NCBI GenBank assembly: GCA_002317215.1
Contig: DCJD01000012.1
Coordinates: 6,579 to 70,578, forward strand
Length of the DNA stretch: 64,000 bases
DNA from: Bacillales bacterium UBA1709
GTDB lineage: Bacteria; Bacillota_I; Bacilli_A; RFN20; UBA1709
Reading direction: 5' to 3'
How positions within the stretch are numbered: the first letter of the stretch is position 1; each line of letters begins with the position of its first letter. A program made the position numbers and the translations under genes. The notes beneath the pieces are model-generated. The model was given only the letters and a program-made list of their open reading frames with translations, had not been told where the DNA came from and did no database searches. Below are positions 8,365 through 61,588 of the stretch, piece after piece.

Positions 8365-8572
8365 TGTTAAAGACAAGACAAAGAATCGATACTAAAAAGC
8401 GAGTTATGATTGGTGAAAGATAACTAGTTTAAATCCTTTGTTATCACTTTATTATTTATAAGGTAGTTCCTATATAACTATAATTAAGGTGCATAATAAC
8501 TGTGTTATTATGAAGAAGGATGGTACCGCGAATTTTCGTTCCTATATATTTATATATAGGAATTTTTTATTA
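8365..8572 (+). promoter_or_regulatory. T-box riboswitch leader of ileS
   Basis: Conserved T-box sequence aaggatggtaccgcg at 8516-8530. It is followed by a terminator hairpin (ttcctatatat...atatataggaa plus a T-run) at 8539-8570. The candidate Ile specifier is aAUCc. Confidence 0.85.
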
Positions 8573-20631: not shown

Positions 20632-20676
20632 TTATTTAATTGAAATTTAGGCGCGTTTGGTATATATTATTTATAC

Positions 20677-20753
20677 GCGCCTATAGCTCAGCTGGATAGA
20701 GCAACTGCCTTCTAAGCCGTAGGTCGGGGGTTCGAATCCCTCTGGGCGCGCCA
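20677..20753 (+). tRNA. tRNA-Arg (anticodon UCU)
   Basis: Hand-folded cloverleaf. The acceptor stem is gcgccta/tgggcgc with CCA encoded. The D-arm is gctc/gagc and the T-loop is ttcgaat. The anticodon loop is cttctaa. The anticodon stem actgc/gccgt shows one T-C mismatch in my reading. Confidence 0.8.
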
Positions 20754-20763
20754 AATGTATACG

Positions 20764-20797
20764 ACAGGTTTGATACAGTATCAGACCTGTTTTTTTG
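20764..20797 (+). terminator. Rho-independent terminator after the tRNA
   Basis: Hairpin acaggtttgata-cag-tatcagacctgt, followed by T7. Confidence 0.7.
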
Positions 20798-20821
20798 TTT
20801 TTTGTAATAAATAAAGGATTT

Positions 20822-20938
20822 TTAGGCGTTTTTTGAATATCTGACCCTAGTGAAGGAAGCGACAGGATTACCGGTTCTGGTTTTTCTGAGTTCTGTGTCT
20901 CTTGTGAGACGACCGATGATAACAACTCGGTTAATCAT
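20822..20938 (-). pseudogene. ssb: Truncated single-stranded DNA-binding protein gene (ssb N-terminal 38 codons)
   Basis: Minus-strand translation gives MINRVVIIGRLTRDTELRKTRTGNPVASFTRVRYSKNA*. This is the canonical SSB OB-fold N-terminus (compare [20 protein letters not shown]...), cut off after 38 aa. ATG is at 20938-20936 and the stop at 20824-20822. Confidence 0.65.
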
Positions 20939-21081
20939 CTAATTGTCCTGCTTTATTAGTCAAGTACGACGATCAAATGTAATTATCCTTTTTTATTACC
21001 AATCATATCCGCAAGAATTTCTCCAATACAAAAATTATAGTCATTCATCCACTTATATATTTATATCTAAGAACAATTATT

Positions 21082-21531
21082 TTATTTTATACTATTTAAG
21101 CCATCGTAAAGTTCATTAAAACTTTTCATTGCTTTGCATCTACCAAATGCTAAATCTTTATCATTCCCAAATTCAAGCAAGAAGCACTTTGCAAGTTCTT
21201 CAACTGTAATCTCTAGATTCTCAAAGAACTGATTATAAACTAGATTCCAGCCATTACTACCTTCTTCAAAATTAGAATTAATCAATGATTCACAAACCTG
21301 ATCTAAAGGATACATTTTTATATGCATTAGTTCATGAACTAATACCTCCTCTAGATTATCAGTTGAACCTGCAGTGTTAATAATTATTATTGCTTTTTTA
21401 TCTGTAGGATCAATTTTAAAATCTCCTGTTTTATTAAGTTCTGAATCATTTACTATCTCAAGCTTTATATCCCAAAATGGTACAATCCTTAATTTTTTAA
21501 CCCAATAGACAAATCTCTCTTCAATATCCAT
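21082..21531 (-). CDS. Small HExxH protein (putative zinc metallopeptidase)
   Basis: VLVHELMHIKMY motif. The likely ATG is at 21531 with a ggggtg SD upstream. The ORF-track start at 21540 is a GTG. No further family assignment is possible from the sequence. Confidence 0.4.
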   Translation of the reverse strand: MDIEERFVYWVKKLRIVPFWDIKLEIVNDSELNKTGDFKIDPTDKKAIIIINTAGSTDNLEEVLVHELMHIKMYPLDQVCESLINSNFEEGSNGWNLVYNQFFENLEITVEELAKCFLLEFGNDKDLAFGRCKAMKSFNELYDGLNSIK

Positions 21532-21731
21532 AAATAACACCCCAAATAATCATTATTACACTATACCACATAAAAAGACCACATCTGATGTTAGGTATAA
21601 TTTTATTTGTTATTTATTCTCTTGCCTATTTGATAACTAATTATTTTATAGCTGCTGACTGTGATAATTTTATAAAGTCAGAGAGGGTGCTAAATTGTAT
21701 CAATATTGACCGATGTTGCCGAGATAAAATA

Positions 21732-21762
21732 ACAGGTCTGATTTAATGTCAGACCTGTTTTT
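21732..21762. terminator. Bidirectional terminator hairpin
   Basis: acaggtctga-tttaatg-tcagacctgt followed by a T-run. The stem arms are identical to those of the terminator at 20764-20797. Confidence 0.55.
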
Positions 21763-21767
21763 ATTAT

Positions 21768-22199
21768 CTAATCTATTTTAGTGTATATATTTGTGGCCAA
21801 ATCTGCACATTTAATAAAACCACATTTCTCATATAATCGCTGGGCTTTTAAATTTATTAGATAGGTATATAGATTAATTCTTGAAAAATTATTTTTATTG
21901 GAATATCTGAAAATAGCATCTTTTAATAACATTGTTCCATAACCTTGATTTTGATATTTTGGATTAATTGCAAAATATTCAAGTAAAGAATTTTCAAAGA
22001 ATGCATACCCTACTAATTGGTTATTTTTCCAGTATGAGTAGAATTCTTTATTAGTCATATCTTTAAATATATTTGATAAAAATCTAACCATTGAATCAGT
22101 TGATGTTACTTTTTCGTTAGCTCTTATGTCTTGTTCTTTAAAGGCTGAATTTTGAATTTCTGCAATTGTAGTAAGCATTGTTTCACCATAGTTTTTCAC
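21768..22199 (-). CDS. GNAT-family N-acetyltransferase; possibly the C-terminal domain of a longer protein (see findings)
   Basis: Acetyl-CoA motif QNQGYGTMLL. The ORF-track start is GTG 22199, and an ATG at 22181 is preceded by a ggtga SD. The same frame stays open upstream to 22628 with no ATG, GTG or TTG. Confidence 0.7.
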   Translation of the reverse strand: MKNYGETMLTTIAEIQNSAFKEQDIRANEKVTSTDSMVRFLSNIFKDMTNKEFYSYWKNNQLVGYAFFENSLLEYFAINPKYQNQGYGTMLLKDAIFRYSNKNNFSRINLYTYLINLKAQRLYEKCGFIKCADLATNIYTKID

Positions 22200-22746
22200 T
22201 GAAATATCTAAATCTATATCAGATCTTTCTGGTGACTTTAAGATCTCGTATTCCAGTCCATAATGTGGTTTCTTAAAATTATTTTTAAATAAAAACTGAT
22301 TTAAATATATTTGTTTTTGATCATGGTTAACACAAAGCCTTTGATCTTTTTCTAATAATTTAATAGATTCTTTAATTCTATTTTCTAGATATATTGCAAT
22401 TTCATAGTCCCTAATAATATCATCAAAAGAAAAGACTATAGATAAACCCTTATCGTCTTTCTCTAATATATAGATGCCATTATCAAAGATTTTATATTCA
22501 ATAACATTATCTTCCTTTAAACATTGGTCAAGAAAATCAATCTCAGATGAATTAACTCTTTTGAGATTATCTTTTAATGTTTTTAAATCTTGTTCATTAA
22601 TTGTTTGTATATTTTTTCCTTCTACATATTAATAAATATACCTTTGTTTTTCAATATACTAAATACAATAAAGAATAACAGAATAAATAATAGAAATAAG
22701 CTTAACAAAATCTTTAAAAGCTTATTTAATTGCACTAAAACCAATT

Positions 22747-24048
22747 TTATATTAAATATAAAACAAATAATGCAATAGATATAGAAGGGATGCCAATTAT
22801 TAATCCATATTTAGTAAAATCTTTAAATGATATTTTTATATCATATTTACTAGTTAGATTAATAAACATCAATCCGGCAAGAGCGCCTAATGGAGTAATA
22901 TATGCTGCTATATTACTAGCGATAATAGAAGCATATATAAACTTAATATTAGACATATCTAATATATAACTATATAATACTGCCATTGGAATATTATTAA
23001 TTAAATTAGCAACTATTAAACCACTATATCCATATATAAATATATTACTATTAGATAGATAGCTTCTAATTAAACTAGTAAATCCAATATTATTTAAACA
23101 TATAACAATAACAAACATTGATAGTATAAATGGGATTAGATTATAGGGTAATCTTTTAATTGTATTTAATGTTATTGAGTTCTTTTTTATAAATGAATAA
23201 ATAGAAATTATTAATAATTCTATTAATGATCCAAGTAAGGCGATTAGATACATTTCAATATCAAATATATAATTTGATATAGAGAGAATAAGAGTCGTTG
23301 ATAATAGAATAGATAAGCCAATAATTAGCAAGAACTTATTAGGTTTATCGATTTTTTCGATATCAATGTTAAGAGGTTTGGATAAATCCTTTTTAAATAA
23401 TGCATACATAATCAATATACTAATTAAACTAGATGAGATGGTTGGTAAAATCATTACTAGTAAATAATTAATAAATGTTATATTAAAACTGCTAGCTAAA
23501 TATATGTTGGTTGGGTTGCCAATTATTAATGCCATTGACATAGTATTTGCACTTATAAATTCCATTATTAGATAAGGAATAGGATTAATTTTAGATTCTT
23601 TAGTTAGATAACATATAAAAGGTGTAAAAGTAAGGATTATTATGTCGTTACTTGTAAATAATGTTAATAAGGATATTAAAGCATATAAACCAAAAAATAA
23701 TTTATATTGATTCGATTTTAATTTAATAGATATTCTATATACTACATATTTAAAAAAGCCAATCTCATCTAAAAAGATGGATAAAAATGTCATTGAAAAA
23801 AATAATATTAATACTTTTAAAGGATTAATAGAATTAGATGAAGTTAGATTATTATATATATTACTAATAGATATATTACCTAATATTATTAATAATAATG
23901 CTCCAATAAAAGGAATTAACCAGAATGAACTAATTTGTAGTTTAGGAGTCAATCTAATTAATGGTTTAAATATATTAAAAATAACTAATAGCAATAATGT
24001 TATTAGAATTATTGATAAAGAAGATACAGTAATAAAATTTATTTCCAT
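22747..24048 (-). CDS. Polytopic permease, ArsB/NhaD (ion transporter superfamily)-like
   Basis: 433 aa with about 12 TM helices and a GNPTNI motif. The family call is tentative. Confidence 0.45.
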   Translation of the reverse strand: MEINFITVSSLSIILITLLLLVIFNIFKPLIRLTPKLQISSFWLIPFIGALLLIILGNISISNIYNNLTSSNSINPLKVLILFFSMTFLSIFLDEIGFFKYVVYRISIKLKSNQYKLFFGLYALISLLTLFTSNDIIILTFTPFICYLTKESKINPIPYLIMEFISANTMSMALIIGNPTNIYLASSFNITFINYLLVMILPTISSSLISILIMYALFKKDLSKPLNIDIEKIDKPNKFLLIIGLSILLSTTLILSISNYIFDIEMYLIALLGSLIELLIISIYSFIKKNSITLNTIKRLPYNLIPFILSMFVIVICLNNIGFTSLIRSYLSNSNIFIYGYSGLIVANLINNIPMAVLYSYILDMSNIKFIYASIIASNIAAYITPLGALAGLMFINLTSKYDIKISFKDFTKYGLIIGIPSISIALFVLYLI

Positions 24049-24139
24049 AAAACCTTATTTATTTTAGTAAAGTTAAGAATAAAAGTAAATCAATAGATTT
24101 ATAGATATTTTCTATTATAATAAATAAGGGTGAATAAAT

Positions 24140-24991
24140 ATGAGTATGAATAAAAAATTACACTTTACAATGTATTTCTATTTATTAAGTACAGCTATTA
24201 GAGATACTATTGAATATTGTCTAACTGATAAGGATAAATTTGATGTTGATTCATATAACGTTAGAAAAACAGTTATTAATAATGCTTTAGTTGAGAATTC
24301 TCAATTCTTTAATTTCTGCAAAAATAATGGCGAAGTTGGCGAAAAGATAATGAAACAAATTAGCGATTTAAAGGATTTAGTTTATGGAAATGAACCTAAA
24401 TTTATCCGTATTAATAAGGATAATTTAGAAATTGATCATTCTTTAAACAATAAAGTATTAGATTTGATTTGTCCTTTACACTTTTCTTGCCGCAATATGA
24501 CTATTGCACATTATAAAGGTTTAGATGATGAAGATAAGAGTTTAGAATATGAACAATTAATCATGTTAGAATCAAAATACTTTGTTTTGATTTCAGAACT
24601 TGTTTTAGGAAAACTAATCTTTATTGATCGTTTTAATGCATTTAATGAATCAATGAAGAATAATAAAGGTCAAGAAAACGTTGAATCAAACTTCATTGTT
24701 AGTGAAATGACTAAACTTGCTGGAATCCATAACTGGATTAGAGATAATGAAGCAAAAGAAGTTAAAGAATATGAAGCTACTGAAGTATTCTTTACGCATG
24801 GATTTAAAGTTAGCAGTGGAGAAATGAAACCAGCTGAAGGAAAAACAATCTTTACAGAATTATTAGATGATGTAAGACAAATTGGTATGACTTTATCTCC
24901 AATCGAAGTTGAATATCATAATCTTCATAATAAACTTTGGAAAGAATTAACTGATTACGAAGAAGAATTAAAGAAAGCTAAACATAATTAA
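24140..24991 (+). CDS. Hypothetical cytoplasmic protein (283 aa), upstream gene of a coupled pair
   Basis: No motif recognised. Its stop overlaps the next start (TAATG). Confidence 0.5.
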   Translation: MSMNKKLHFTMYFYLLSTAIRDTIEYCLTDKDKFDVDSYNVRKTVINNALVENSQFFNFCKNNGEVGEKIMKQISDLKDLVYGNEPKFIRINKDNLEIDHSLNNKVLDLICPLHFSCRNMTIAHYKGLDDEDKSLEYEQLIMLESKYFVLISELVLGKLIFIDRFNAFNESMKNNKGQENVESNFIVSEMTKLAGIHNWIRDNEAKEVKEYEATEVFFTHGFKVSSGEMKPAEGKTIFTELLDDVRQIGMTLSPIEVEYHNLHNKLWKELTDYEEELKKAKHN

Positions 24992-25431
24992 TGAAACAAA
25001 TTAAAACTAGCATTAATAAGAAAACTAAAACAAGATTATCAATATTAGAATTTATCTTATTTTTAATATTTATATTTTTTATAACTTTGGGAGCTATTAA
25101 TTTTACTCCATTATATACTTTAATAGGTTTTATATTTGGTTTAATATTTATGCTACAAGTTCCACTATTTTTTGATTTCAACAAAACTATTATTCTAAAT
25201 AGTGATGGGATATTTATATATTCTAATCTAAAACTAAAGAAAGATTATAAATATAGCAAGATTAAAAAAGGATATACCACTAGATATCTAAAAGAAGAGT
25301 TTCTTATTTTAGATAATTCTAAGAACGGTATTTTAATTCCTTTATCTAATTTATCTAAAGAAGATAAACATTATTTAAGAGATTTACTTAATAAAATAGA
25401 AATCAAAGATCGTAAAAACTTTCTTCATTAA
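24991..25431 (+). CDS. Small membrane protein (146 aa; two adjacent TM helices and a basic cytoplasmic tail)
   Basis: Hydrophobic segment LSILEFILFLIFIFFITLGAINFTPLYTLIGFIFGLIFML. It is translationally coupled to the upstream gene. Confidence 0.5.
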   Translation: MKQIKTSINKKTKTRLSILEFILFLIFIFFITLGAINFTPLYTLIGFIFGLIFMLQVPLFFDFNKTIILNSDGIFIYSNLKLKKDYKYSKIKKGYTTRYLKEEFLILDNSKNGILIPLSNLSKEDKHYLRDLLNKIEIKDRKNFLH

Positions 25432-25454
25432 TCCTAAAATTTGGACATTTAAAA

Positions 25455-25481
25455 TAGCAGCAAATAATGCTGCTATTTTTA
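25455..25481 (+). terminator. Terminator after the two-gene cassette
   Basis: agcagcaaataatgctgct hairpin followed by a T-run. A -10 element tataat lies directly downstream. Confidence 0.55.
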
Positions 25482-25497
25482 TGTTATAATTTTGAAG

Positions 25498-26766
25498 ATG
25501 GAAAAAGTTTATCTTTGTATTGATTTAAAGTCTTTTTATGCTTCTGTAGAATGTGTTGATAGAGGATTAGATTCAATGACAACTAATCTAGTTGTTGCAG
25601 ATCCTAGTAGAGGTAAAGGAACTATTTGCTTAGCGGTTTCTCCTGCATTAAAAGCATTAGGTGTAAGAAATAGATGTAGAGTATATGAGATACCTACATC
25701 TTTAAAATACATTATGGCTCCTCCTAGAATGAGTCGTTATATGGAGATGAGTTGCCTTATCTATAACATCTACTTAAAGTATATTAGTCAAGATGATATA
25801 CATGTTTATAGTATTGATGAATGTTTCCTAGATATAACAAATTATACTGATATGTATCAAAAAACTCCCATGGAACTAGCTAAAATGATTATAGATGATG
25901 TTTTTAATACAACAGGTATTGTGGCTACATGTGGTATTGGAACTAATCTATTCTTAGCTAAGATTGCTTTAGATATAACCGCGAAACATAGTCCAACTAG
26001 AATTGGGTATCTTGATGAAGAAAAGTTTAAAAAAGAACTTTGGGATCATAAACCAATCACGGATTTTTGGAATATTGCTAGTGGTATATCAACTAGATTG
26101 CTTAAATATAATGTTGATACATTAAGAGGGATTACTAAGTTAGATGAAGATTTATTGTATAAAGAATTTGGAATTAATGCTGAGTTATTAATTGATCATG
26201 CTTATGGCAAAGAAACCACAACTATTTATGATATTAAGCACTATACATCTAAATCAAATTCTTTATCTAAAGGACAAGTTTTATTTGAAGATTACAACTT
26301 TGAAAACGCCAAAATAATCCTAAAAGAAATGATTGATTCAATATGTTTAGATTTAGTTGAAAAACATTTAGTTGCAGGTTCAATAGGCCTTAGTATTGTT
26401 TATTCAAAAAGAGACAATTCTTCTATGTATGGATTAAGAAGTGGTGGTAGTAAAATACTTGGAGAAAGAACAAGAAGTAAGCCTAAATTAAAACAATATT
26501 TTCTTGATTTATATGAAAAATATATTGATAAAAATCAGTTAATTAGAGGTATAAATATTGGCCTTGGAGTATGCGATGAAGCATATAAAACAGTTGATTT
26601 ATTTGAGTCAAATAATGAATTAGAAAAAGAAGATACATTATCAAAAACTATCCTAAAAATCAAAGAAAAACATGGCAAGAATAGTATCTTAAAGGCATTA
26701 GATTTTAAGGATAAAGCAACTCAAAAAGATCGCAATAAATTTATTGGAGGACATAAGGGTGGATAG
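25498..26766 (+). CDS. Y-family (UmuC/UvrX/YqjW-like) translesion DNA polymerase
   Basis: The N-terminus LCIDLKSFYASVECV...LAVSPALKALGV matches the DinB/UmuC palm domain. The ATG lies only about 7 nt after the -10 box, so the transcript is probably leaderless or short-leader. The ORF-track start is a TTG. Confidence 0.8.
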   Translation: MEKVYLCIDLKSFYASVECVDRGLDSMTTNLVVADPSRGKGTICLAVSPALKALGVRNRCRVYEIPTSLKYIMAPPRMSRYMEMSCLIYNIYLKYISQDDIHVYSIDECFLDITNYTDMYQKTPMELAKMIIDDVFNTTGIVATCGIGTNLFLAKIALDITAKHSPTRIGYLDEEKFKKELWDHKPITDFWNIASGISTRLLKYNVDTLRGITKLDEDLLYKEFGINAELLIDHAYGKETTTIYDIKHYTSKSNSLSKGQVLFEDYNFENAKIILKEMIDSICLDLVEKHLVAGSIGLSIVYSKRDNSSMYGLRSGGSKILGERTRSKPKLKQYFLDLYEKYIDKNQLIRGINIGLGVCDEAYKTVDLFESNNELEKEDTLSKTILKIKEKHGKNSILKALDFKDKATQKDRNKFIGGHKGG

Positions 26767-26773
26767 AAATAAA

Positions 26774-27085
26774 ATGACCAATCAAGAAAGAGCAAAACAG
26801 TTTCTTCCTTTTGATGCTTTGGAAGGATATTTTGATATGGTTAATTTATCTACTTATGAGAAATGTGTTAGAAAATCTTTAGATGTTGATGAACAAGAAA
26901 GATTAGCAAAAATTCTATCCTCATTTCATAAAGCTGATATGGTTAGAATTACTTATTATGATATTGATCATTACAAAACAATAACTGGATTAATATCTAG
27001 AATAGATTATGACCATAACACCTTATCTATTGTTAAAACAAAAATATATGTTGAAGATATTATTAGTGCATACAAAGTAGAATAA
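26774..27085 (+). CDS. YolD-like protein (UmuD functional analogue partner of Y-family polymerases)
   Basis: About 104 aa. The N-terminal ERAKQFLPFDAL region resembles YolD-family proteins. SD aagggtgga lies upstream of ATG 26774. It sits immediately after the polymerase gene. Confidence 0.5.
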   Translation: MTNQERAKQFLPFDALEGYFDMVNLSTYEKCVRKSLDVDEQERLAKILSSFHKADMVRITYYDIDHYKTITGLISRIDYDHNTLSIVKTKIYVEDIISAYKVE

Positions 27086-27143
27086 TTTGACTTTTAATAT
27101 TATTAATTTACAATAATAAAAGACTAATAAGGAGGTTTTTAAA

Positions 27144-27743
27144 ATGAAATTAGCAAAAAGAGCATTTACTCTTGTTGAATTATTAGTTGTTATTGCCATA
27201 CTAGGAATTTTGGCTACTGTAGGAGTAGTTAGCTATACATCTTTAACTAAAAAAGGTTATATTTCTAACACTACTGATGAATTAACTCAAGTTAAAAAAG
27301 CTATTACAGCAGTATCATTAGATGCAAACGCACAAGTATATGTTAACGCTGATAATGATGGCTTATCATTCACAGGAAAGAGTCCATATTTCTGTGTTGC
27401 AACTGTTGCTTCACCAACTCCATCAACAATCACAACAGGTGATTATTACACATTGAAGACTGGCGCTACTAAGTTAGGCGAATTCGCTTCATTTGAAATT
27501 GATAATAATGAATTTTATGATCATGCTACTTACTATACATTAGTTGCTAACAACTATGGTTGGGCAGATGTTTATTATGAAGTTTGTGAAATTATTGATA
27601 ATCAAGAAATTGCTGCTAAAATTCAAACACCTACACCAAATGCTCAAGGAAAGATTACTTCAATTAGATATATCTATAATGAAGATTTCTACGGAACTTG
27701 GGATGTAGTAAAAGATACAATTAAAGTAACAGAAGTAAAATAA
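27144..27743 (+). CDS. Type IV pilin / ComGC-like major (pseudo)pilin
   Basis: Class III signal MKLAKRA|FTLVELLVVIAILGILA with Glu5. 199 aa. A strong RBS (aggagg) lies upstream and a strong terminator follows. Confidence 0.8.
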   Translation: MKLAKRAFTLVELLVVIAILGILATVGVVSYTSLTKKGYISNTTDELTQVKKAITAVSLDANAQVYVNADNDGLSFTGKSPYFCVATVASPTPSTITTGDYYTLKTGATKLGEFASFEIDNNEFYDHATYYTLVANNYGWADVYYEVCEIIDNQEIAAKIQTPTPNAQGKITSIRYIYNEDFYGTWDVVKDTIKVTEVK

Positions 27744-27750
27744 TGTACTA

Positions 27751-27786
27751 AAAAAGGAACAAATCATAAAAAATGTTCCTTTTTTG
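27751..27786 (+). terminator. Terminator after the major pilin gene
   Basis: aggaacaaatcataaaaaatgttcct hairpin followed by T5. Confidence 0.7.
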
Positions 27787-27871
27787 TTTGTAAAAAAAAA
27801 AAAAAATAGGCAAAAAGTTTGTAGATTTGAAAATATCTTATATAATAAGATAAAGAAAAGAGAGGGTTTAT

Positions 27872-30547
27872 ATGATTAAAGCTATTAAAAAAGCCTTTAC
27901 TTTAGTTGAACTATTAGTCGTCATAGCCATTTTAGCAATTCTTGCTACTGTCGGTATCGTCTCTTATAGTTCATTTAAAGAAAAAGCACAAGTTTCTAAT
28001 GACGTTGGGTTAGTTACTCAACTAAACAGATTTGTTTACACTAAGACAAGTGAATCAATTACTTATCCTACACCATATTCTTTAATGGAAGATTTGGTTA
28101 ATGATAAAACAGGTATTGACTTATCTGAATTAGACACATTCAAAGGTGATTATCACTACGCATTCAATATTAACAAGGATGTTCAAAAATTCTTCTTAGT
28201 TAATAATAATTATGATGTAGTTGAAAACGGTAATGTTGTAACTAACAAATACAATAAAAATGCTAAATTAGATTTCTTTGTATTCGTTAAAGATAGCGAA
28301 GATGCTATTAAGATGGAACAAGCTGGATATAGCGTCTATCTACAAAACGGTACATATACTAACGAAACATTTGCCTCTTGGGAAGCTGGTCTTGATGTTG
28401 GCGATAATAAAATTAGCGCTATTAACTATGTTAATACCACAGGATCAAATAGAAGTGTTACATTTAGAACAATTGAAGGAACTTTAACTATTAATGCTCC
28501 TTTAGATAATGTTTATCACTATGGTTTTGCCAATGAAGTTATCTTAACTTCAACTGCAACCACTTCATATCATGAACTTGGTTCTACTCCAATTGTTTCA
28601 ATTAAAAGAGGAAGACTTGCTCTAGAATCAGGTTGTTCAGTACAAGTTGTTCACTTTGCATCTACTGAGGTTGCTAATGAACCTATGTATGATGATATTA
28701 GAGTAGCTATTGCTGATGGTGTAGATTTACCAATCTTTGCTAGAGATCGCGTTGAAATTCCAGAACATCAAATCAATAAGATGCTAGTCGTTGAATTACA
28801 ACATGGTTTAGATCCAGAATCATGTGATAAAGATAAGATTTATTTATATAAATACGGTATTGTTGAGCAAATGATCGTTGAAGAAGTTAAAACTTCTGTT
28901 GAACGTTATGCTGATGAAGAGGCTGTTAATGATGATTCTCAACAATGTGCAATTGATCTTGCAAACTGTTGGAGATATAACGGTCAAGATTATAAATACG
29001 GCGAATACAAAACTGATAAAACCGCTCAAGATGGTGTAATTAAAGTTTATCTTGATGGTACAGAAGAAGCTGATAAAACTGCTATTGCAGATGCCGAAGT
29101 TACTAATACTGGTATGGATTTCGAAGCAGCTACTAAGGTTGCCGCATTCGCAGGTGGTACTGGAACAGAAAATGACCCATACTTAATCTCAAATCCAACT
29201 CAATGGAATAACATTTATCCAATTCTACATGAAACAACACCTCTTAAGAAAATTACTTATTTCAAATTAGTTTCAGATGTTGATTTCACTGATTATTATA
29301 TTGATAACAGTCCAGTTGAAAATGATTATATTTATATCAATATGGATGGAAACGGACATGAACTTAAAAATGTAAGTAAATTTGCTCCTAATTCATCTGA
29401 ATCATTATTCAATTTATGTTGGAATATTACTTTATCTAACATGACTATTGACTTTGAAATAGTTTCTGATGGACGTAGCGGATATGTTGGTGGTATTAGT
29501 AAAGAACTAGGATGTACTAACCCAGATGATAAATCTGATAAAGCAGTATTTACTAACATTACAACAACAGGATCAATTATTAGAGATATAAGTGGTTTTA
29601 CTGGCGTATATACTTCTGAATTATATTGTAATGCTACATTCAATAATTGTGCTAACCACACATCACTTGTTTCTACAAGTTATGTTGCATCTATTGCTCC
29701 ACACTGTATGGCAGGTGGAAGTCAAATCAGTCTAACATTTAATGGATATTATAACTTTGCTCCAATGTATGGTGCACAAGTTGGTGGTATCTTTGCAATG
29801 TATAGTGGCGACATCAAACCACTTGTTACTGGTGGTGGAGTTGTTAACTATGGAAAGATATATTCAACAACACCATATCATGGTTGTTTCGATGCTAATG
29901 GTAACACATTCTATGATTCTAATAATGCAGTAAAAGATGTTAAAGGCGCAGAAAGTGCAACTACTTTAACTGTTACTCCTACAACTATTACATTAGGAGA
30001 ATTTGGCGATACTATTAAAACTGCCGCAGTTGCAAATGCTACTAGATATGCAATTAATATGTCATTTGCTACAGGACACTATGACTACACTCCTTCTTCT
30101 GGATGGGGCGGTGGATTCTATAGAACTCTTTCTAAAACTTATAGTGCTGAATATATGGCAGCACATAATTATGAATTCACAAACATGATTCACACATATA
30201 TTGGTGAAGTTAAAAATGATAAGCAAGATTTCTGGAGTAATGATCCAGTTGCTTATAACGGATTATATGTTAGTGACGATTTCTCAGTTGAAACTGACGG
30301 TGTAGAAATTATTGATACTTTCACAAATGGATTATATTTAATCTCATATGAAGGCAAGACTTTCTACTACTATAATTTAGATGCTAAGAGAGCTTTATTG
30401 GATAGTTCAATTCAAGAAGCTCGTAGTACAGGTAAATTCTATGTAACTGTTACTGTAACAGCTTATAAAGATAATACTATCATTGGTTATCGTTCTACTT
30501 CTTATTACTATACCCCAGATCAATGGGATGGATTTATTGCAGACTAG
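27872..30547 (+). CDS. Giant modular pilin (891 aa) with a prepilin-type N-terminus
   Basis: MIKAIKKA|FTLVELLVVIAILAILATVG class III signal. The C-terminal region of about 850 aa is rich in N/T/Y/G. Confidence 0.75.
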   Translation: MIKAIKKAFTLVELLVVIAILAILATVGIVSYSSFKEKAQVSNDVGLVTQLNRFVYTKTSESITYPTPYSLMEDLVNDKTGIDLSELDTFKGDYHYAFNINKDVQKFFLVNNNYDVVENGNVVTNKYNKNAKLDFFVFVKDSEDAIKMEQAGYSVYLQNGTYTNETFASWEAGLDVGDNKISAINYVNTTGSNRSVTFRTIEGTLTINAPLDNVYHYGFANEVILTSTATTSYHELGSTPIVSIKRGRLALESGCSVQVVHFASTEVANEPMYDDIRVAIADGVDLPIFARDRVEIPEHQINKMLVVELQHGLDPESCDKDKIYLYKYGIVEQMIVEEVKTSVERYADEEAVNDDSQQCAIDLANCWRYNGQDYKYGEYKTDKTAQDGVIKVYLDGTEEADKTAIADAEVTNTGMDFEAATKVAAFAGGTGTENDPYLISNPTQWNNIYPILHETTPLKKITYFKLVSDVDFTDYYIDNSPVENDYIYINMDGNGHELKNVSKFAPNSSESLFNLCWNITLSNMTIDFEIVSDGRSGYVGGISKELGCTNPDDKSDKAVFTNITTTGSIIRDISGFTGVYTSELYCNATFNNCANHTSLVSTSYVASIAPHCMAGGSQISLTFNGYYNFAPMYGAQVGGIFAMYSGDIKPLVTGGGVVNYGKIYSTTPYHGCFDANGNTFYDSNNAVKDVKGAESATTLTVTPTTITLGEFGDTIKTAAVANATRYAINMSFATGHYDYTPSSGWGGGFYRTLSKTYSAEYMAAHNYEFTNMIHTYIGEVKNDKQDFWSNDPVAYNGLYVSDDFSVETDGVEIIDTFTNGLYLISYEGKTFYYYNLDAKRALLDSSIQEARSTGKFYVTVTVTAYKDNTIIGYRSTSYYYTPDQWDGFIAD

Positions 30548-30558
30548 GAGAGATTATT

Positions 30559-31203
30559 ATGATATTTACAATGATAGATAAAATGTTTGAAATTCAAGGA
30601 TCTAACTTATTATTACTAGCAATTCTTTGTTCGCTAGTATCAGTAATGTTAATCATACTTATGATTCTTGGATTAGTTTCCGACAAAAAGATTAAAACTG
30701 AAAAGAAAGCTTTAACAGATGAAGCTGAGTATTATCAAAAACGTTATGAAAAAAGCGTTGAAGTTAATACATTAGTTGATGGTATTGTTTCTGCACTTGA
30801 AAAAGGCAAACCATTACCTGAAATTGAAGGTTACGTTTATAAACCTAAAAATGCTTCTAAAAAAGATACAAGACAATATGATCAATGTCTTGCAGAACTC
30901 CCAAAAGTTAAAAGACAAATCATTGAAGAATTTACTAAAGCTTGCAATGAACTTGAAGGAATTTCATCTAAAAAAGCTGGAAGAAAATTAACATATAAGT
31001 TAGGAAAATCCACAATTGCCGATATTACAATCAAGTTTGATACTGCTGTTATTAAAATCTATGTTCAAAATAAAGAATTATTAGATCGTGAAATGGTACT
31101 TAAACCATTATCATTCGATGTAACAAAATATCTAAATGTAGATAATTTAATCTTAGCTGTTAAACAAGCACATATTGTATTCGCTCTTGAAGCAAATAAA
31201 TAA
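30559..31203 (+). CDS. Bitopic membrane protein of the pilus operon (possible assembly / alignment component)
   Basis: ATG 30559 after RBS aggagag. One N-terminal TM helix (LLLLAILCSLVSVMLIILMILGLV) followed by a charged soluble domain. Confidence 0.45.
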   Translation: MIFTMIDKMFEIQGSNLLLLAILCSLVSVMLIILMILGLVSDKKIKTEKKALTDEAEYYQKRYEKSVEVNTLVDGIVSALEKGKPLPEIEGYVYKPKNASKKDTRQYDQCLAELPKVKRQIIEEFTKACNELEGISSKKAGRKLTYKLGKSTIADITIKFDTAVIKIYVQNKELLDREMVLKPLSFDVTKYLNVDNLILAVKQAHIVFALEANK

Positions 31204-31214
31204 TAAAATAAAAA

Positions 31215-31246
31215 TTAGGCATTTATATTATAAATGCCTTTTTTAT
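31215..31246 (+). terminator. Intra-operon terminator / attenuator
   Basis: aggcatttatattataaatgcct hairpin followed by T6. Confidence 0.6.
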
Positions 31247-31268
31247 TGAAATAGTGTATAATTTTATT

Positions 31269-31652
31269 ATGAAGAAAAAAACAAAAGGTTTTACACTAGT
31301 AGAAGTATTGGCTGCGATTAGCGTTGCGGCCATCCTTTTTGGACTTATTAGTTATAGTATGCTTTTTATTAATACAACAAGTAGTGAAGCGATTAGTGAA
31401 AGCGGAAGTAGCTATGCTATAAGAAAAATAAAAGATTATATTATAAGTCAACGAATTGATGATGATAAGTTTAATTATAGTGAGAATACTTTGTTTTATG
31501 ATTCATCTGTTATATTTGAAAACCTACCATTTGAAAGTATGAATATTGATATCGAAAATCATCTTGATGATAATTCAACATGGTGTACTATTGCATATTC
31601 AAGTAATAATAGTAGTGATTCAATTAATTTTGTTGTTTATATAGGAGGCTAA
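31269..31652 (+). CDS. Minor pilin / pseudopilin
   Basis: MKKKTKG|FTLVEVLAAISVAAIL prepilin signal. ATG 31269, whereas the ORF-track start is a GTG. Confidence 0.7.
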   Translation: MKKKTKGFTLVEVLAAISVAAILFGLISYSMLFINTTSSEAISESGSSYAIRKIKDYIISQRIDDDKFNYSENTLFYDSSVIFENLPFESMNIDIENHLDDNSTWCTIAYSSNNSSDSINFVVYIGG

Positions 31653-31653
31653 T

Positions 31654-32433
31654 ATGAAGGATTGTTTTACAGTATTAACATTTAATAATGTCGGTAATGC
31701 TTTTATTTCAGTTAAAACTTACAAGCGATTAATTAGTGGTAAAGATGAGTTTATTAATGAAGATTATCTTGCATTAGATGATTTACAATTAAAAAACGGT
31801 TTACCAATTAACGCAAGTTACATTGCTGAATTTATTGAAGGGCTTGATATAAATGATTATGATTTATATCTATGTTTAAATTGCGATGAAATCTTTAAGA
31901 TTACCACTTCTATGCCTCATATTTCATTATCAAAAGCTAAAAAGGTTGTTGGTCTTGATATTAAAACTAACTACCCAGACTTAGTTGAGAATTATGATAA
32001 GAAACAATATATTTATGCTACTTCTCAAGGATACTTATTTTATGATTATTTAATACCAAAAAGAATTATTGATTTCTTTAAAAAGATTTTTAAAGAAAAG
32101 AATATTAAGTATCAAAAATATGTTTTATATCCTGAATTCTTATTAAAGACTAGTGGTATTAAGGATAAAGAATATGTTTATGCTTTTAATGAGCATGGTC
32201 TTGGTACATTAATTTTAAATTATAACGGAGCATATTCTTATTCTACTTTTGCTTATAATTTTAATGCTCTAAACCAAACATATTATCAAATGGTTAGCAA
32301 ACATCAATACGAACTAGAAAAGAAAACTTTAGATAAAGTATACTGCACTTTTGGTGTTATTGGATTTAGTGCAAAAGCAGAATATAAAGAGCCATTTAAA
32401 AAATATAAATTTGAATTAAAAGGATTGAAATAA
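31654..32433 (+). CDS. Hypothetical protein within the pilus operon
   Basis: 259 aa with no TM helix or recognised motif. It is tightly packed between pilin genes. Confidence 0.4.
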   Translation: MKDCFTVLTFNNVGNAFISVKTYKRLISGKDEFINEDYLALDDLQLKNGLPINASYIAEFIEGLDINDYDLYLCLNCDEIFKITTSMPHISLSKAKKVVGLDIKTNYPDLVENYDKKQYIYATSQGYLFYDYLIPKRIIDFFKKIFKEKNIKYQKYVLYPEFLLKTSGIKDKEYVYAFNEHGLGTLILNYNGAYSYSTFAYNFNALNQTYYQMVSKHQYELEKKTLDKVYCTFGVIGFSAKAEYKEPFKKYKFELKGLK

Positions 32434-32825
32434 TGAAAAAAGCGATGACACTTGTTGAAGTACTAGTTGCATTAACAATTTTCTTGTTAATCTTTACTTT
32501 AACATTGTCTATTTATGCTTCAATTAGTATTATTTCCAAAAGGCAAAAACAATATACCTACTTTGAATCAATCTGTTTAGATATCGACAAATATTATGAT
32601 TCATATGATAAACAATGGGATATATATTACTATAATCATAATGCTGAATTTGGAACGGTTATTTATTATTCATCCTCATATCAAGTATCTCAAAATAGCG
32701 ATGCTAGATATGAACTAGAATATAAATATGATATTGATGATCATTTAGTTGTTAGCATTAAAGATATTGTGAACGATAACTATGTTATTAAAGATTTAAA
32801 TTATGGAGTATCAAAAGCGAGATGA
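32433..32825 (+). CDS. Minor pilin / pseudopilin
   Basis: MKKA|MTLVEVLVALTIFLLIF prepilin signal with Glu5. It ends on a TGA stop. Confidence 0.7.
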   Translation: MKKAMTLVEVLVALTIFLLIFTLTLSIYASISIISKRQKQYTYFESICLDIDKYYDSYDKQWDIYYYNHNAEFGTVIYYSSSYQVSQNSDARYELEYKYDIDDHLVVSIKDIVNDNYVIKDLNYGVSKAR

Positions 32826-32995
32826 AAACTAAGAAAGCTAGTGCATTACTTGTTACATTCATTGTCTGTCTTGTTCTATTAATCTTAGTTGTTGGAACAC
32901 TTTCATTAGTTGTTCGTTATAATCTTGATGTTAATAGAAGAAGTGATTTACTTGAAAATAAAGTATACAACGTTATAAAAGGAGAAATATGGTAA
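32822..32995 (+). CDS. Small pilin-like membrane protein (57 aa), ComGG-like, without Glu5
   Basis: MKTKKASALLVTFIVCLVLLILVVGTLSLVV. Absent from the ORF track because it is under 60 aa. Its start overlaps the previous gene (ATGA). Confidence 0.4.
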   Translation: MKTKKASALLVTFIVCLVLLILVVGTLSLVVRYNLDVNRRSDLLENKVYNVIKGEIW

Positions 32996-33762
32996 ACATT
33001 ATTATTGGTTTATTTATATTTGTTATTGGAACTTGCTTCGCAAGCTTCTTTGGCGTTGTTATAAGTAGAGTACCAAACAAAATGTCAATTGTTAAACCTG
33101 ATAGTCATTGCTTCAATTGCGATCATGAACTTAAATGGTATGAGAATATTCCTTTGATTTCTTATATAGTATTAAAAGGAAAATGCAGTAATTGTAATAC
33201 TAAGATTGGTATTTTCTCGTTTATCTATGAATTAGTTGGTGGATTAGTTCCATTATTTATATTTATTAAGTTTGGAATTAATGTTGAATCAATATTAATA
33301 ATGGTTATTAGTTTAATTCTTTTATTAATGGCCGGATACGACTATAAAACAAATACTATATTAGATATTATGTGGATGGTATTTGGAATATTAGTATTAA
33401 TGTTATTTATGTATCGTTCTATATTCTTATTTATTCCATTTAAAAACTACCTAATTAGTTTTGCTATTGGATCAATTATATTTATATTTATTAAGTTATT
33501 TGGTTTATTTATTTTAAAGATGGATATTTTAGGAACTGGCGATGTCATTGTTTTTGGACTATCTTGTTTATTATTTAATCCACTTGGTATTTTAATTAGT
33601 TTAATAATTAGTTGTGTTCCAGGATCAATTATTGAATTAATTAAATTATCAAAATCTAAAGAAGAAAAAGAAATTGCCTTTCTTCCTTATTTAGCATTTG
33701 GAATATATATCGCAATTCTTTTTACTCCATTTATTACTAATTTATTATTTGAGGTGATCTAA
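32989..33762 (+). CDS. pilD: Prepilin peptidase (A24 family, PilD/ComC)
   Basis: N-terminal tetracysteine CFNC...CSNC zinc motif followed by polytopic membrane helices. Confidence 0.8.
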   Translation: MVNIIIGLFIFVIGTCFASFFGVVISRVPNKMSIVKPDSHCFNCDHELKWYENIPLISYIVLKGKCSNCNTKIGIFSFIYELVGGLVPLFIFIKFGINVESILIMVISLILLLMAGYDYKTNTILDIMWMVFGILVLMLFMYRSIFLFIPFKNYLISFAIGSIIFIFIKLFGLFILKMDILGTGDVIVFGLSCLLFNPLGILISLIISCVPGSIIELIKLSKSKEEKEIAFLPYLAFGIYIAILFTPFITNLLFEVI

Positions 33763-33763
33763 T

Positions 33764-34969
33764 ATGCCATTTTATAGATGCAAAGTATATAACCAACTTG
33801 GAAAACAAATCGTTACTTATAAAGAAGCAACTGATGAAACAAGTTTAAAAGCTAATTTAAAAACCGATTGTTTGATTTTGATTAATGCTAGTGTTGTCAA
33901 AGAAAAAGAACCAAATGTATTTTTTAGTGTTTCTAGTAAAATTAAAAGAAGCGAAGTTATTATGTTTTTAAGACAATTCTCCGTTTTAATTAGTAGTAGC
34001 GTTTCTATAGCTGATGCATTAAGTAGTTTAAAATCTCAAAGATATTCTAAACCATTCATGAAAGTATTAATGGAGATATATCGTGATGTAATGAGTGGAA
34101 AACTATTATCAGAAGCTTTTGGAGTTCATCCTAAAGTATTCCCAAGATTTTTCGTTGAAATGGTTGCAATTGGTGAAGTATCAGGATCTCTTGATAATGT
34201 ATTAAAGCAAATGGCAGATTATTATGAGAAAGATAATAAAATCAAAGGGAAAGCTAAAGCTGCTTTAACTTATCCTTCTATATTATTTGTCATGATTAAT
34301 ATTGTTATTATATTTATGAGTTTTGTTATCTTGCCTCAATTTGAAAATATGTTTATTGAATTTGGAGGGACTGTTCCAAAATTTACTACAACAATATTAG
34401 ATATTGCTTACTATATTCGTACAAATCTATTCTATATTATTGTTGGCTTACTTACTTTCTTCTCTTTATTATATTTATATTTTCAAACTAAATCAGGCAA
34501 ATATTCCAAAGATAAGATTGCCTTACATTTACCTTTTGTAGGGAGAATTAATAGAGCAATTATTACATCAAGATTTACTAAAGCATTCGTCATATTATTA
34601 AACAGTGGTATGAATATAAGCGATTGTATGGAAAACTTAAAAAGAGTATTAACTAACCAAGTTTTCTCTAAGAAATTTGATTATGCTATTACGGAAGTTA
34701 AAAGAGGTAAATCGATTGCAAGATCAATTGAGAATACAGATATGTTCCCAAGCATCTTAATTGAAATGATTAAAGTTGGAGAAAAAAGTGGCAACTTAGA
34801 AGAAGTATTAAATTCAACTTCAGGTTTCTATGATGATGAAGTTGAAAGAAGTATATCCAAAGCAACGGCGGCACTTGAACCTATTATGATATTATTCCTA
34901 GGTGCGGTAGTAGTTGTTGTACTATTAAGCGTTTATATACCAATGCTTGACTTAATGAATCAAATTTAG
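33764..34969 (+). CDS. pilC: Type IV pilus / T2SS platform protein (GspF/PilC/ComGB)
   Basis: 401 aa with two T2SSF repeats, each followed by TM segments. Confidence 0.8.
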   Translation: MPFYRCKVYNQLGKQIVTYKEATDETSLKANLKTDCLILINASVVKEKEPNVFFSVSSKIKRSEVIMFLRQFSVLISSSVSIADALSSLKSQRYSKPFMKVLMEIYRDVMSGKLLSEAFGVHPKVFPRFFVEMVAIGEVSGSLDNVLKQMADYYEKDNKIKGKAKAALTYPSILFVMINIVIIFMSFVILPQFENMFIEFGGTVPKFTTTILDIAYYIRTNLFYIIVGLLTFFSLLYLYFQTKSGKYSKDKIALHLPFVGRINRAIITSRFTKAFVILLNSGMNISDCMENLKRVLTNQVFSKKFDYAITEVKRGKSIARSIENTDMFPSILIEMIKVGEKSGNLEEVLNSTSGFYDDEVERSISKATAALEPIMILFLGAVVVVVLLSVYIPMLDLMNQI

Positions 34970-34981
34970 GAGGGTTTAAAT

Positions 34982-36658
34982 ATGATAATCAATGAAAGAT
35001 TTGCAAAATACCTAGAGACAAATAGCTCAATTAGTCCAGAAATGATCAATAAATATCTTGATATTTCAGATAAAAATGAGACGCCAATTTATTTTGAAAT
35101 TATTAAAGAACCTAAAGTTTCTGAAGAAGAAGTATATCGTTTACTTGCTACATTCTTTAAAACCGAATATCGTTATGTTCAATTATCAGAATTAAATTTC
35201 CCATTAATTGATAAATTTCCTCGTGCAAAATTAATCGAATTTAAAACTGTTCCAATTGAAGAAAATGAAGATAGTGTTTCTTTTATTCTTTCAAACCCAT
35301 TAAGATTTGAAGATTTACAAGAATTTAAAGCAATTACTCCAAAACAAATTAGATGCTATGTTTCAACAACTTCTAATATTAATGATTTAGTTTCTTATAT
35401 TGATAACAAAGCACAACAAAGAAGTGTTATGGAAGGTTTGGATAGCGATTCTAATTTTAAAGATAGCGAGAATAATGGTAATAAAACTGTTGAGATTGAT
35501 GCTCCTGTTATTAAACTTTGTGACTCTATTTTAAAAGATGCAATCAGTAGAAAAGCTAGTGATATTCATATTGAGCCTTTCCAAGAAGACTTATTATTAA
35601 GATTTAGAATAGATGGTAAATTAAGCGTTGTTGATCATCTAAACTTGAACATGTATCAAGCAATTTTAGCTCGTTATAAAATTATGGCCGAGATGAATAT
35701 TGCTGAACGTCGTGTTCCCCAAGATGGTAAAATTAATATGAGTATAAGCGGGGTTGAATTTGACTTCCGTGTCTCAACAATACCTACAATCAATGGTGAG
35801 AAAATAGTTATAAGAATATTCAATAACTCCTTATCTACAGCCAATATTAATAGTTTAGGATATAATGAAAATGAACAAAAATTAGTTCTAAACATGATTT
35901 CAAGACCACATGGAATAATATTACTTACTGGTCCAACTGGATCTGGTAAATCAACATCATTATATACATTTTTAAGACACCTAAATAAAGAAGATACTAA
36001 TATTATTACGGTTGAAGATCCAGTTGAAAATGTTATTGATGGTATAAATCAAGTTCAAGTTAATCCAAAAGCAAATATGACTTTTGCTAATGCATTAAGA
36101 TCTATATTAAGACAAGACCCTAATATTATAATGATTGGTGAAATTCGTGATGAAGAAACAGCTGCCATTGCAACTCGTGCTGCTATTACTGGTCACTTAG
36201 TTTTATCTACATTACATACCAATAGTGCAACTGGAGTTGTATCAAGACTTGTTAATATGGGAGTTGCCCCTTATTTAGTTGCTGATAGTTTACTTGGAGC
36301 AATCTCTCAAAGACTTGTTAGAAGATTATGCCCAAAATGTAAAAAGGAACACTTAACTACTAAAGCTGAAATGGAAATATTAGGTTTAGATAAACCTACT
36401 AAAATTTGTTCTCCAGTAGGCTGTCCTGCATGTAACAATACAGGATATAGTGGTAGAACTGGTGTATTTGAGATTATGGTTTGCGATGATAGTGTTCGTA
36501 GTGCAATTATGAACGATCATTTCTCAACTGAATTATTAAATAATGTTGTAGAAGGTAAAATGGTTTCTTTAATTGATAATTGTAAAGAAAAGATTTTACA
36601 AGGAATTACAAGCATTGAAGAATACAATGAATTATCTGAGGTTGTTAAAACAAAATAA
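34982..36658 (+). CDS. pilB: Type IV pilus assembly ATPase (GspE/PilB/ComGA)
   Basis: Walker A LLTGPTGSGKST, Asp box, His box, and a C-terminal tetracysteine CPKC...CPAC. Confidence 0.85.
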   Translation: MIINERFAKYLETNSSISPEMINKYLDISDKNETPIYFEIIKEPKVSEEEVYRLLATFFKTEYRYVQLSELNFPLIDKFPRAKLIEFKTVPIEENEDSVSFILSNPLRFEDLQEFKAITPKQIRCYVSTTSNINDLVSYIDNKAQQRSVMEGLDSDSNFKDSENNGNKTVEIDAPVIKLCDSILKDAISRKASDIHIEPFQEDLLLRFRIDGKLSVVDHLNLNMYQAILARYKIMAEMNIAERRVPQDGKINMSISGVEFDFRVSTIPTINGEKIVIRIFNNSLSTANINSLGYNENEQKLVLNMISRPHGIILLTGPTGSGKSTSLYTFLRHLNKEDTNIITVEDPVENVIDGINQVQVNPKANMTFANALRSILRQDPNIIMIGEIRDEETAAIATRAAITGHLVLSTLHTNSATGVVSRLVNMGVAPYLVADSLLGAISQRLVRRLCPKCKKEHLTTKAEMEILGLDKPTKICSPVGCPACNNTGYSGRTGVFEIMVCDDSVRSAIMNDHFSTELLNNVVEGKMVSLIDNCKEKILQGITSIEEYNELSEVVKTK

Positions 36659-44259: not shown

Positions 44260-44294
44260 AATAAATAGTGTTATAATAAAACTGCGTTGAATAG

Positions 44295-44513
44295 AAGGTA
44301 TTAGAATTATTCTTAATAGAGAGCTAATAGTGGGTGGAAAATTAGCAAAGATATAATCTAATATGTCGTCTAGGAGCATAAAGATGAAAATAAGTAGTCT
44401 TTACGGGTTATTCCGTTATAAATAAATTAAGGTGCATAGTTTAAAAACTATGAATAAGGATGGTACCGCGAATTTTCGTTCCTATATATTTTATATATAG
44501 GAACTTTTTTATT
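44295..44513 (+). promoter_or_regulatory. T-box riboswitch leader of valS
   Basis: aaggatggtaccgcg at 44456-44470, plus the terminator ttcctatatat...atatataggaac followed by a T-run. The candidate Val specifier is GUC in atgtcgtc. Confidence 0.85.
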
Positions 44514-48182: not shown

Positions 48183-48321
48183 TGACTACAATATTGGCTT
48201 GTGGTAACATTTATTCGTTGTTAGCCTTCTTGGAGGGTTACAACCGCTCTCTATGGGTCTATAAAGCCATTGGCTACCTAATTAGGCGAGTCTTATCCAA
48301 ATTATAGGAGGTGTAATCAAA
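48183..48321 (+). promoter_or_regulatory. Promoter (TTGACT-17-TAACAT) and structured leader of the rplU-prp-rpmA operon (candidate L21 leader)
   Basis: The roughly 100-nt leader is relatively GC-rich, with a gttgttagcc...ggttacaac stem. Its position matches the L21 autoregulatory leader of Firmicutes. Confidence 0.4.
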
Positions 48322-61419: not shown

Positions 61420-61588
61420 AATTGTTTGTTTAGAGAGAACTTATTTGGTGAAAGAGTTCCAAACATATAGTGACTTATTAATCGTTTGTTACGTTATAAC
61501 TATAAGCAAGTGCATAAGTTGATCTTATGAATTAGGATGGCACCGCGAAAACTCGTTCCTAAATTATTTTAGGAACTTTTTTATTGGA
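61420..61588 (+). promoter_or_regulatory. T-box riboswitch leader of hisS-aspS
   Basis: attaggatggcaccgcg at 61532-61548, with the terminator gttcctaaattattttaggaac followed by a T-run. The candidate His specifier is CAU in aaacatat. Confidence 0.8.

Follow-up and report, generated by a model that had tools for sequence, protein, structure and literature searches.

A truncated ssb remnant beside a conserved tRNA-Arg(UCU) gene in an AT-rich Bacillales genome

RESULTS

The tRNA-Arg(UCU) gene and its terminator

The 64-kb stretch of DNA analyzed here (the window; GC content, ~28%) carries a single tRNA gene, which was identified by ARAGORN as a tRNA-Arg with the anticodon TCT at positions 20677-20753 of the plus strand and was confirmed by Rfam (RF00005; 63.8 bits against a threshold of 29). 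A tRNA-Arg(TCT) gene occupies the equivalent place in the same-species metagenome contig L001 and in two relatives, L016 and L017, in both of which it follows a P-type ATPase gene. Its cloverleaf with anticodon, its score above the family threshold, and its conserved position identify it as a tRNA gene of the chromosomal backbone. A promoter-like site (TTGAAA, 17 nt, TATATT; 20640-20668, plus strand; 10 of 12 consensus matches in a consensus scan) ends 9 nt upstream of the tRNA and may serve as its promoter. The tRNA gene itself is intact and is followed by its own intrinsic terminator, T1 (20763-20803, plus strand), in which the terminator scan found a hairpin at 20763-20791 with a 13-bp stem, then a T run; its folding energy was -16.2 kcal/mol (RNAfold). 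A search of both strands around the adjoining ssb fragment against Rfam found no RNA element other than the tRNA.

A 38-codon ORF derived from the start of an SSB gene

Nineteen bases beyond T1 ends a 38-codon open reading frame (ORF) on the minus strand (20822-20938; ATG at 20938, stop codon at 20822-20824), designated ssb', whose translation is MINRVVIIGRLTRDTELRKTRTGNPVASFTRVRYSKNA*. The ORF matched the Pfam SSB family PF00436 with 31.5 bits (cutoff, 26; E 1.9e-7), with residues 2-30 aligned to profile positions 1-29 of 104, as well as NCBIfam TIGR00621 (E 3.6e-9) and PHROG 44 (phrog_44; E 9.5e-10). In a tblastn search of the whole window with Bacillus subtilis SsbA as the query, ssb' was the single site found (63% identity over residues 1-30; E 1.9e-7), and no second SSB-like sequence was present in the 64 kb. 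The original prediction had named a tRNA-Arg(UCU) gene, its terminator, and a 38-codon minus-strand ORF, all of which were recovered by ARAGORN, Rfam, the terminator scan, and our reading of the ORF. It had also called the ORF the truncated start of an SSB gene, had proposed a similarity search as a check, and had accepted that it would be wrong if significant SSB similarity were lacking; the similarity proved significant with all three family models, with the SSB part confined to residues 1-30.

In tblastn searches of 50,697 phage and 72,556 plasmid records, ssb' drew more than 1,000 SSB matches in each collection, the best of them 65-73% identical. Nearly all of these alignments stopped at residue 29-30, and the few plasmid alignments that reached residue 38 did so at only 50% identity. 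An exhaustive HMMER scan of 1.84 billion protein representatives returned 162 matches at E ≤ 0.001, nearly all spanning residues 1-30 or 1-31 and none exceeding 77% identity, and a look-up of the exact 38-aa ORF returned no record. The last eight codons (RVRYSKNA) are not recognizably SSB. Because the match ends at residue 30-31, the true SSB remnant comprises ~90 nt (20849-20938), that is, codons 1-30 of the ORF. The possibility that ssb continues past residue 30 in a shifted frame was considered and rejected, since neither of the two other reading frames showed such a continuation.

The similarity to SSB begins at the start codon and is significant, which identifies ssb' as an SSB-derived pseudogene stub. 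It keeps that start codon and the first 30 residues, and an AGGA motif, which on visual inspection could be a ribosome-binding site, lies 7 nt before the ATG within a 116-nt spacer (20939-21054, minus strand) that had no match in phages, plasmids, or L005, a contig described below. The complete OB fold of ~100 residues that characterizes an intact SSB is reduced to 29 of the 104 profile positions, and codon 39 is a stop codon. The ORF ends in RVRYSKNA* at residue 38 and has no acidic C-terminal tip, the part of SSB that binds partner proteins. Because both the remainder of the OB fold and the acidic tail are missing, ssb' cannot bind DNA or partner proteins or act as a working SSB.

Composition of the stub and search for a donor

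The 90 nt of SSB-derived sequence have a GC content of 44%, compared with 20-29% in the neighboring genes. Of its 30 codons, 12 end in G or C (GC3 of 0.40) against a host mean of 4.5 of 30; in a reference of 17,181 thirty-codon windows drawn from 44 host genes, 12 was the maximum and was reached by 0.08% of the windows. The codon CTC, which accounts for 1.1% of host Leu codons, occurs twice in the stub, and CGA, TCC, GTC, and ACC, which also occur there, are likewise rare in the host. Since the conserved host genes tig and lon are not enriched in stub-type codons, the codon bias does not reflect expression level. By its codon composition, then, the stub is foreign. Relatives with a GC content of 36-37% have GC3 values of 0.30-0.42, and a donor of such composition would fit. 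The stub has not drifted to the 28% GC of its host, which suggests that its entry was recent, as judged from one genome of the species.

At the DNA level, blastn of 20754-21081 found no match in phages or plasmids, and exact 20- to 29-mers of the stub had no match in IMG/VR, where a degenerate pattern of its first 14 residues retrieved one unrelated high-GC phage SSB. At the protein level, no donor above 80% identity was found. A word-indexed search with the stub returned eight short partial SSBs, and the best protein match (80% over 30 residues) was P0242, annotated as a partial SSB in an Erysipelotrichaceae metagenome-assembled genome (MAG). Its contig encodes, in order, an endonuclease, a RecT-like annealing protein (phrog_2185, E 1.4e-74), a metallo-hydrolase/MBL protein (phrog_392), and the SSB, a neighborhood that reads as a phage-type recombination module; in DNA sequence, the contig does not resemble the window. 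From these matches, an origin of the stub in a phage or element is plausible but unproven, because phage and chromosomal SSBs cannot be told apart over 30 residues.

A 528-bp HExxH cassette shared with another genome

Upstream of the spacer lies a 528-bp patch (21055-21582, minus strand) that comprises a 149-aa zincin-like gene with an HExxH motif (21082-21531), the region upstream of this gene, and the 3' arm of a foreign terminator. This cassette is 93% identical in DNA to positions 321-856 of L005, a 1,542-bp contig from another sample, in which it sits between rpsR and a gene for a PLP-dependent decarboxylase; the flanks of the cassette in L005 do not align with the window. The left edge of the cassette falls inside the 3' arm of the L005 rpsR terminator, and since that arm alone is left in the window, the window copy would seem to have been cut out of an L005-like context.

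The HExxH protein has more than 2,300 homologues, with ~63-72% identity across Roseburia, other Lachnospiraceae, and Clostridia. The two homologue contexts that we read were both ordinary chromosomal ones, the first amid acetyltransferases and metabolic genes and the second adjoining an ABC ATPase and LrgAB. The family was absent from the 50,697 phage records and was represented once among the 72,556 plasmids, by a non-mobilizable one, and a search for related loci in IMG/VR based on the HExxH protein found none. Exact look-ups of the protein in three forms returned no record, although the cluster table lists the exact protein of the window from NCBI and from a Logan assembly. It belongs to no Pfam family; its predicted fold (AF2, pLDDT 84.6) consists of a small sheet and two long helices carrying the HExxH motif and weakly matches minimal zincins such as jannalysin, SprT/Spartan, and ImmA-like domains. 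We considered identification of this protein as an ICE-type ImmA and rejected it given the lack of a Pfam match, the weak phrog_87 match (E 4e-4), the weak fold matches, and the chromosomal setting of the homologues. Taken together, the gene reads as a separately mobile 528-bp patch of a chromosomal family.

Two copies of one terminator bracket the stub and the cassette

Beyond the cassette, a bidirectional terminator (T2; 21731-21759), detected by the scan on both strands, follows a GNAT gene and has the same stem as T1. The two sites (T1, 20763-20794; T2, 21731-21762) are identical at 26 of 31 positions, lie in direct orientation 968 bp apart, and share the stem AACAGGTCTGA, which occurs nowhere else in the window. 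Among ~20 terminator-like hairpins, T1 and T2 are the sole pair with an identical 10-nt arm; the next-best pair, which matches at 8 of 10 positions, consists of two T-box terminators. The ~970 bp between T1 and T2 contain the stub, the spacer, the HExxH patch, and a doubtful 52-codon gene (21588-21746, plus strand), a mechanical ORF that was not called in L002 and has a marginal PHROG match alone (phrog_24178, E 0.0089) and no other family. At least three joints, at ~21582, ~21055, and ~20848, fall within 800 bp and separate pieces with different histories. The bracketing of this ~1-kb segment by one duplicated terminator is a new observation that the original prediction had missed.

The arrangement suggests an insertion scenario. 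The ancestral order would have been tRNA, single terminator, and GNAT; the ~970-bp segment that carries ssb' along with the HExxH cassette may have entered by recombination at the terminator between tRNA and GNAT, which would have been duplicated on entry to leave one copy on each side (T1 and T2). The scenario draws on a 31-nt repeat of hairpins that are short and partly constrained in sequence.

Other repeated sequences and leaders were noted elsewhere in the window. A family of 43-nt repeats lies at 8509-8551, 44278-44491, and 61526-61568, each copy just upstream of a long ORF, and the ORF after the first copy is the window counterpart of the isoleucyl-tRNA synthetase gene of L001. Since the middle copy lies within an Rfam T-box leader (109.5 bits), these repeats probably represent T-box terminator/antiterminator segments. 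At 48232-48303, there is an L21 leader. Three tandem 39-nt units (62874-62990; 67-74% identity to the first) lie inside an ORF on the plus strand (61598-63040); by eye, the unit translates to a His/Cys/Glu-rich peptide, and the other strand carries an overlapping 101-aa ORF.

A variable interval between the tRNA and DUF3196

The locus was compared with L016 (GCA_964367815.1) and L017 (ERZ28633764), two long contigs from relatives at the family level (ATPase, 57-61% identical). The tRNA-adjoining ATPase had one 100% match and then matches at 65%, 61%, and 57%, no closer relative being present in the collections searched; the named matches came from Erysipelotrichaceae, Acholeplasmatales, and "Tenericutes" MAGs. 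A P-type ATPase scan of genome and metagenome contigs returned unrelated Actinomycetota matches alone, at 24% identity. The backbone of L017 runs from SepF through IleRS, LspA, RluD, dCMP deaminase, RNase HII, MutS2, UvrC, and the ATPase to tRNA-Arg(TCT), and that of L016 is the same from IleRS on with three extra genes, of which one precedes RNase HII and two separate UvrC from the ATPase. When all window proteins were compared with the two contigs by tblastn, UvrC, the ATPase, DUF3196, Tig, and Lon matched and nothing else did. DUF3196 resumes the backbone in both relatives, and L017 continues to Tig and Lon.

The interval between the tRNA and DUF3196 spans 15.9 kb in the window (20754-36657), 3.5 kb in L016, and 4.6 kb in L017, with no content common to the three. 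In L016 (12675-16157), it opens with a KilA-N regulator (phrog_2657, E 1e-33); in L017 (12620-17200), it encodes a member of the DUF4417 nuclease family, an HNH endonuclease, and a protein with a weak repressor-like match; in the window, the phage-family genes are UvrX and YolD (phrog_1268, E 2.8e-73; phrog_3352). Neither relative has ssb at this locus, an integrase in the interval according to precomputed Pfam gene tables, or a repeat of the tRNA 3' end. As in a genomic island, the block has been replaced while its flanks were conserved, a statement that holds at the family level only. Because the flanks are kept, the content is unshared, and phage-family genes occur in all three genomes, the tRNA marks a long-lived gene-flux hotspot.

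Two further gene groups of the window interval deserve description. A type IV pilus or competence-pseudopilus cluster (27144-36658) that is absent at this locus in L016 and L017 encodes several proteins with prepilin motifs (one of 891 aa), a PilD-like peptidase, a PilC-like T2SSF protein, and a PilB-like T2SSE protein. Just upstream of UvrX/YolD lies an overlapping gene pair (24140-24991, 283 aa; 24991-25431, 146 aa) with no Pfam or PADLOC match and marginal PHROG matches (E 0.005-0.007), the second gene having a weak match to the NCBIfam STM3941 family. PADLOC applied to the HExxH, GNAT, and YolD proteins and to this pair found nothing.

Search for the hallmarks of one integrated element

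The original prediction had read ssb', the HExxH gene, the GNAT gene, a permease gene, the unknown gene pair, and UvrX/YolD (20.8-27.1 kb) as one decayed element integrated at the tRNA gene, while conceding that no integrase or att repeat was visible. That concession was sound. Pfam scans of nearly all ORFs of at least 100 aa and of small ORFs near the tRNA detected no integrase at either end or elsewhere in 20.7-36.7 kb, a coverage that leaves out a 130-aa ORF (32433-32825) and most ORFs below 100 aa. The direct repeat of the tRNA 3' end for which the prediction had advised a search was missing: with a 17-mer and a 26-mer and up to three mismatches allowed, the tRNA itself was the sole hit in the 64 kb, 43 kb of which lie downstream. 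The block does not deviate in composition as a unit; the HExxH, GNAT, permease, unknown-pair, and UvrX/YolD genes have backbone-like GC3 values of 0.12-0.20, and 20849-20938 alone departs from the host. The comparison with related genomes that had also been advised gave a divided answer, in that the interval is replaced in L016 and L017 with its flanks kept, as foreseen, but is not bounded at 27.1 kb and runs to 36657. The pieces are, on this evidence of composition and gene content, better described as a mosaic of small patches, each with its own history, than as one eroded element.

DISCUSSION

We consider it likely that ssb' is the nonfunctional 5' stub of a horizontally acquired Bacillota-type ssb gene, most probably phage- or element-borne, lying in the recombination-prone interval that follows the conserved tRNA-Arg(UCU). 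Foreign DNA carrying ssb would have entered the locus recently, and nearly all of it would have been deleted afterwards. What survives of the earlier proposal of a decayed tRNA-linked element is the foreign ssb debris and the lineage-variable locus; its unity and its extent do not survive.

The proposal in its full form, in which a single prophage or ICE integrated in the 3' end of tRNA-Arg(UCU), left 20.8-27.1 kb as its eroded body, and lost its integrase and attR, seems unlikely to us. It would account for a position adjoining a tRNA in an interval that varies between relatives and for the strong phage-family matches of UvrX and YolD, and a soft point in its favor is that a same-species metagenome contig stops exactly at the tRNA 3' end, as if alternative sequences followed. 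However, no integrase domain occurs in any scanned ORF of the interval, no 17- or 26-nt repeat of the tRNA 3' end lies downstream, the block genes have the GC3 of the host whereas the stub stands at 0.40, the HExxH family is chromosomal and absent from phage records with its gene on a separate 528-bp patch, and the non-conserved interval extends beyond 27.1 kb. These observations favor a stub with a history of its own over one integration event spanning the region. The contig ends just mentioned also bear on the assembly. L001 ends at window position 20753, and L002 and L003 end at 21411-21414 inside the HExxH gene; between these ends lie 660 bp, the stub among them, for which the window sequence is the sole support, the assemblies read stopping on either side. 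These ends are hints of alternative sequences after both points in the community. With breaks in same-species contigs (JGI 3300001598 and Logan SRR1221442) on either side of the stub, and with a window that apparently comes from a metagenome-assembled contig, one could suppose that the stub comes from a different organism, one richer in GC, and that metagenome assembly falsely joined it to the window sequence at the tRNA or at a repeat. Such a chimera is most improbable, because the foreign patch is ~90-150 nt long with AT-rich sequence on both sides and two false joins within one read length would be needed. A chimera would normally bring the remainder of ssb with it; moreover, the exact HExxH protein is also recorded in a Logan assembly, and the breaks are explained by a tRNA and an HExxH cassette that are common to other genomes.

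A more local origin of the stub, as a duplicate of the chromosomal ssb of the host (rpsF-ssb-rpsR) or as a resident gene that decayed in place, is comparably hard to sustain. The peptide is a generic Bacillota SSB start, and the HExxH cassette of L005 is immediately preceded by rpsR, the downstream neighbor of ssb in the canonical operon order rpsF-ssb-rpsR. The codon usage of the stub is nevertheless far from that of the host, tig and lon included, and its codons are also unlike those of the L005 rpsR gene (GC3 of 0.26); the 116 nt that precede it have no recognizable coding content and are not rpsF, and the relatives lack ssb at this locus. We also tried to connect the stub with an rpsF-ssb-rpsR operon through L005 and abandoned the connection, as it needs a circular permutation, rpsF is absent upstream, and the codon usage differs. 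Least credible of all is a function for the 38-codon ORF or its transcript, for example as a small peptide or as an antisense transcript into the tRNA terminator. An intact ATG, the AGGA motif, and a weak promoter-like site would allow for expression, but an OB fold cannot be built from 30 residues, the -10-like hexamer shares bases with the start codon, and the region has no Rfam match beyond the tRNA. No homologue has the same truncation and tail, the short matches being partial, truncated, or miscalled SSB ORFs with other tails. We therefore return to the acquired and truncated ssb gene as the preferred reading.

Several known systems help to place the stub. The SSBs of Bacillota temperate phages, ICEs, and plasmids (PF00436) resemble ssb' in its N-terminal 30 residues at 65-80%, the best match being the one in the RecT-MBL-SSB module; unlike them, ssb' keeps 29 of 104 OB positions, has no acidic tip, and has no neighboring recombination or replication genes. 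Elements with tyrosine integrases target tRNA 3' ends, giving rise to tRNA-linked islands and prophage sites. Here, too, a conserved tRNA opens an interval of differing content with phage-family genes, but there is no integrase, no 3'-end repeat, and no compositional block, and the tRNA is intact. There is also a likeness to cryptic prophage or element remnants and to gene-fragment scars in bacterial chromosomes, since ssb' is short, foreign, truncated, and devoid of partner genes in a mosaic region; it differs in being far smaller than typical cryptic prophages, with ~90 nt recognizable, so that the parent element cannot be named. As a pseudogene scar left by past gene exchange, ssb' is ordinary. 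For the segment around it, the two direct terminator copies (26 of 31 nt) that bracket ~970 bp recall a Campbell-type single-crossover insertion, from which the present case differs in its very short repeat and the lack of a recombinase.

A bolder and very unlikely interpretation is that the T1-T2 segment records a hairpin-directed movement of very small gene cassettes. It takes its cue from the duplicated terminator that brackets the segment here and from L005, where the upstream edge of the 93% identical cassette also lies within a terminator hairpin, that of rpsR. Terminators would then act as landing sites for mini-cassettes that need no integrase, perhaps by way of natural transformation, an idea prompted by the type IV pilus/pseudopilus cluster next door, and the ssb stub would be hitchhiking debris. 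If true, terminator-landing mini-cassettes would constitute an undescribed route of gene exchange. The duplicated terminator and the 0.5-kb HExxH cassette common to two genomes are the sole parts of the locus that might repay more work.

For annotation, 20822-20938 is a pseudogene fragment and not a small protein. The start of a gene beside a tRNA does not by itself set the extent of an element, and the neighbors of ssb' differ in history. With its likely acquired and now nonfunctional ssb stub, the locus serves as an example of how a tRNA-flanked site gathers and erodes foreign DNA in an uncultured, AT-rich gut lineage related to Acholeplasmatales and Erysipelotrichaceae.
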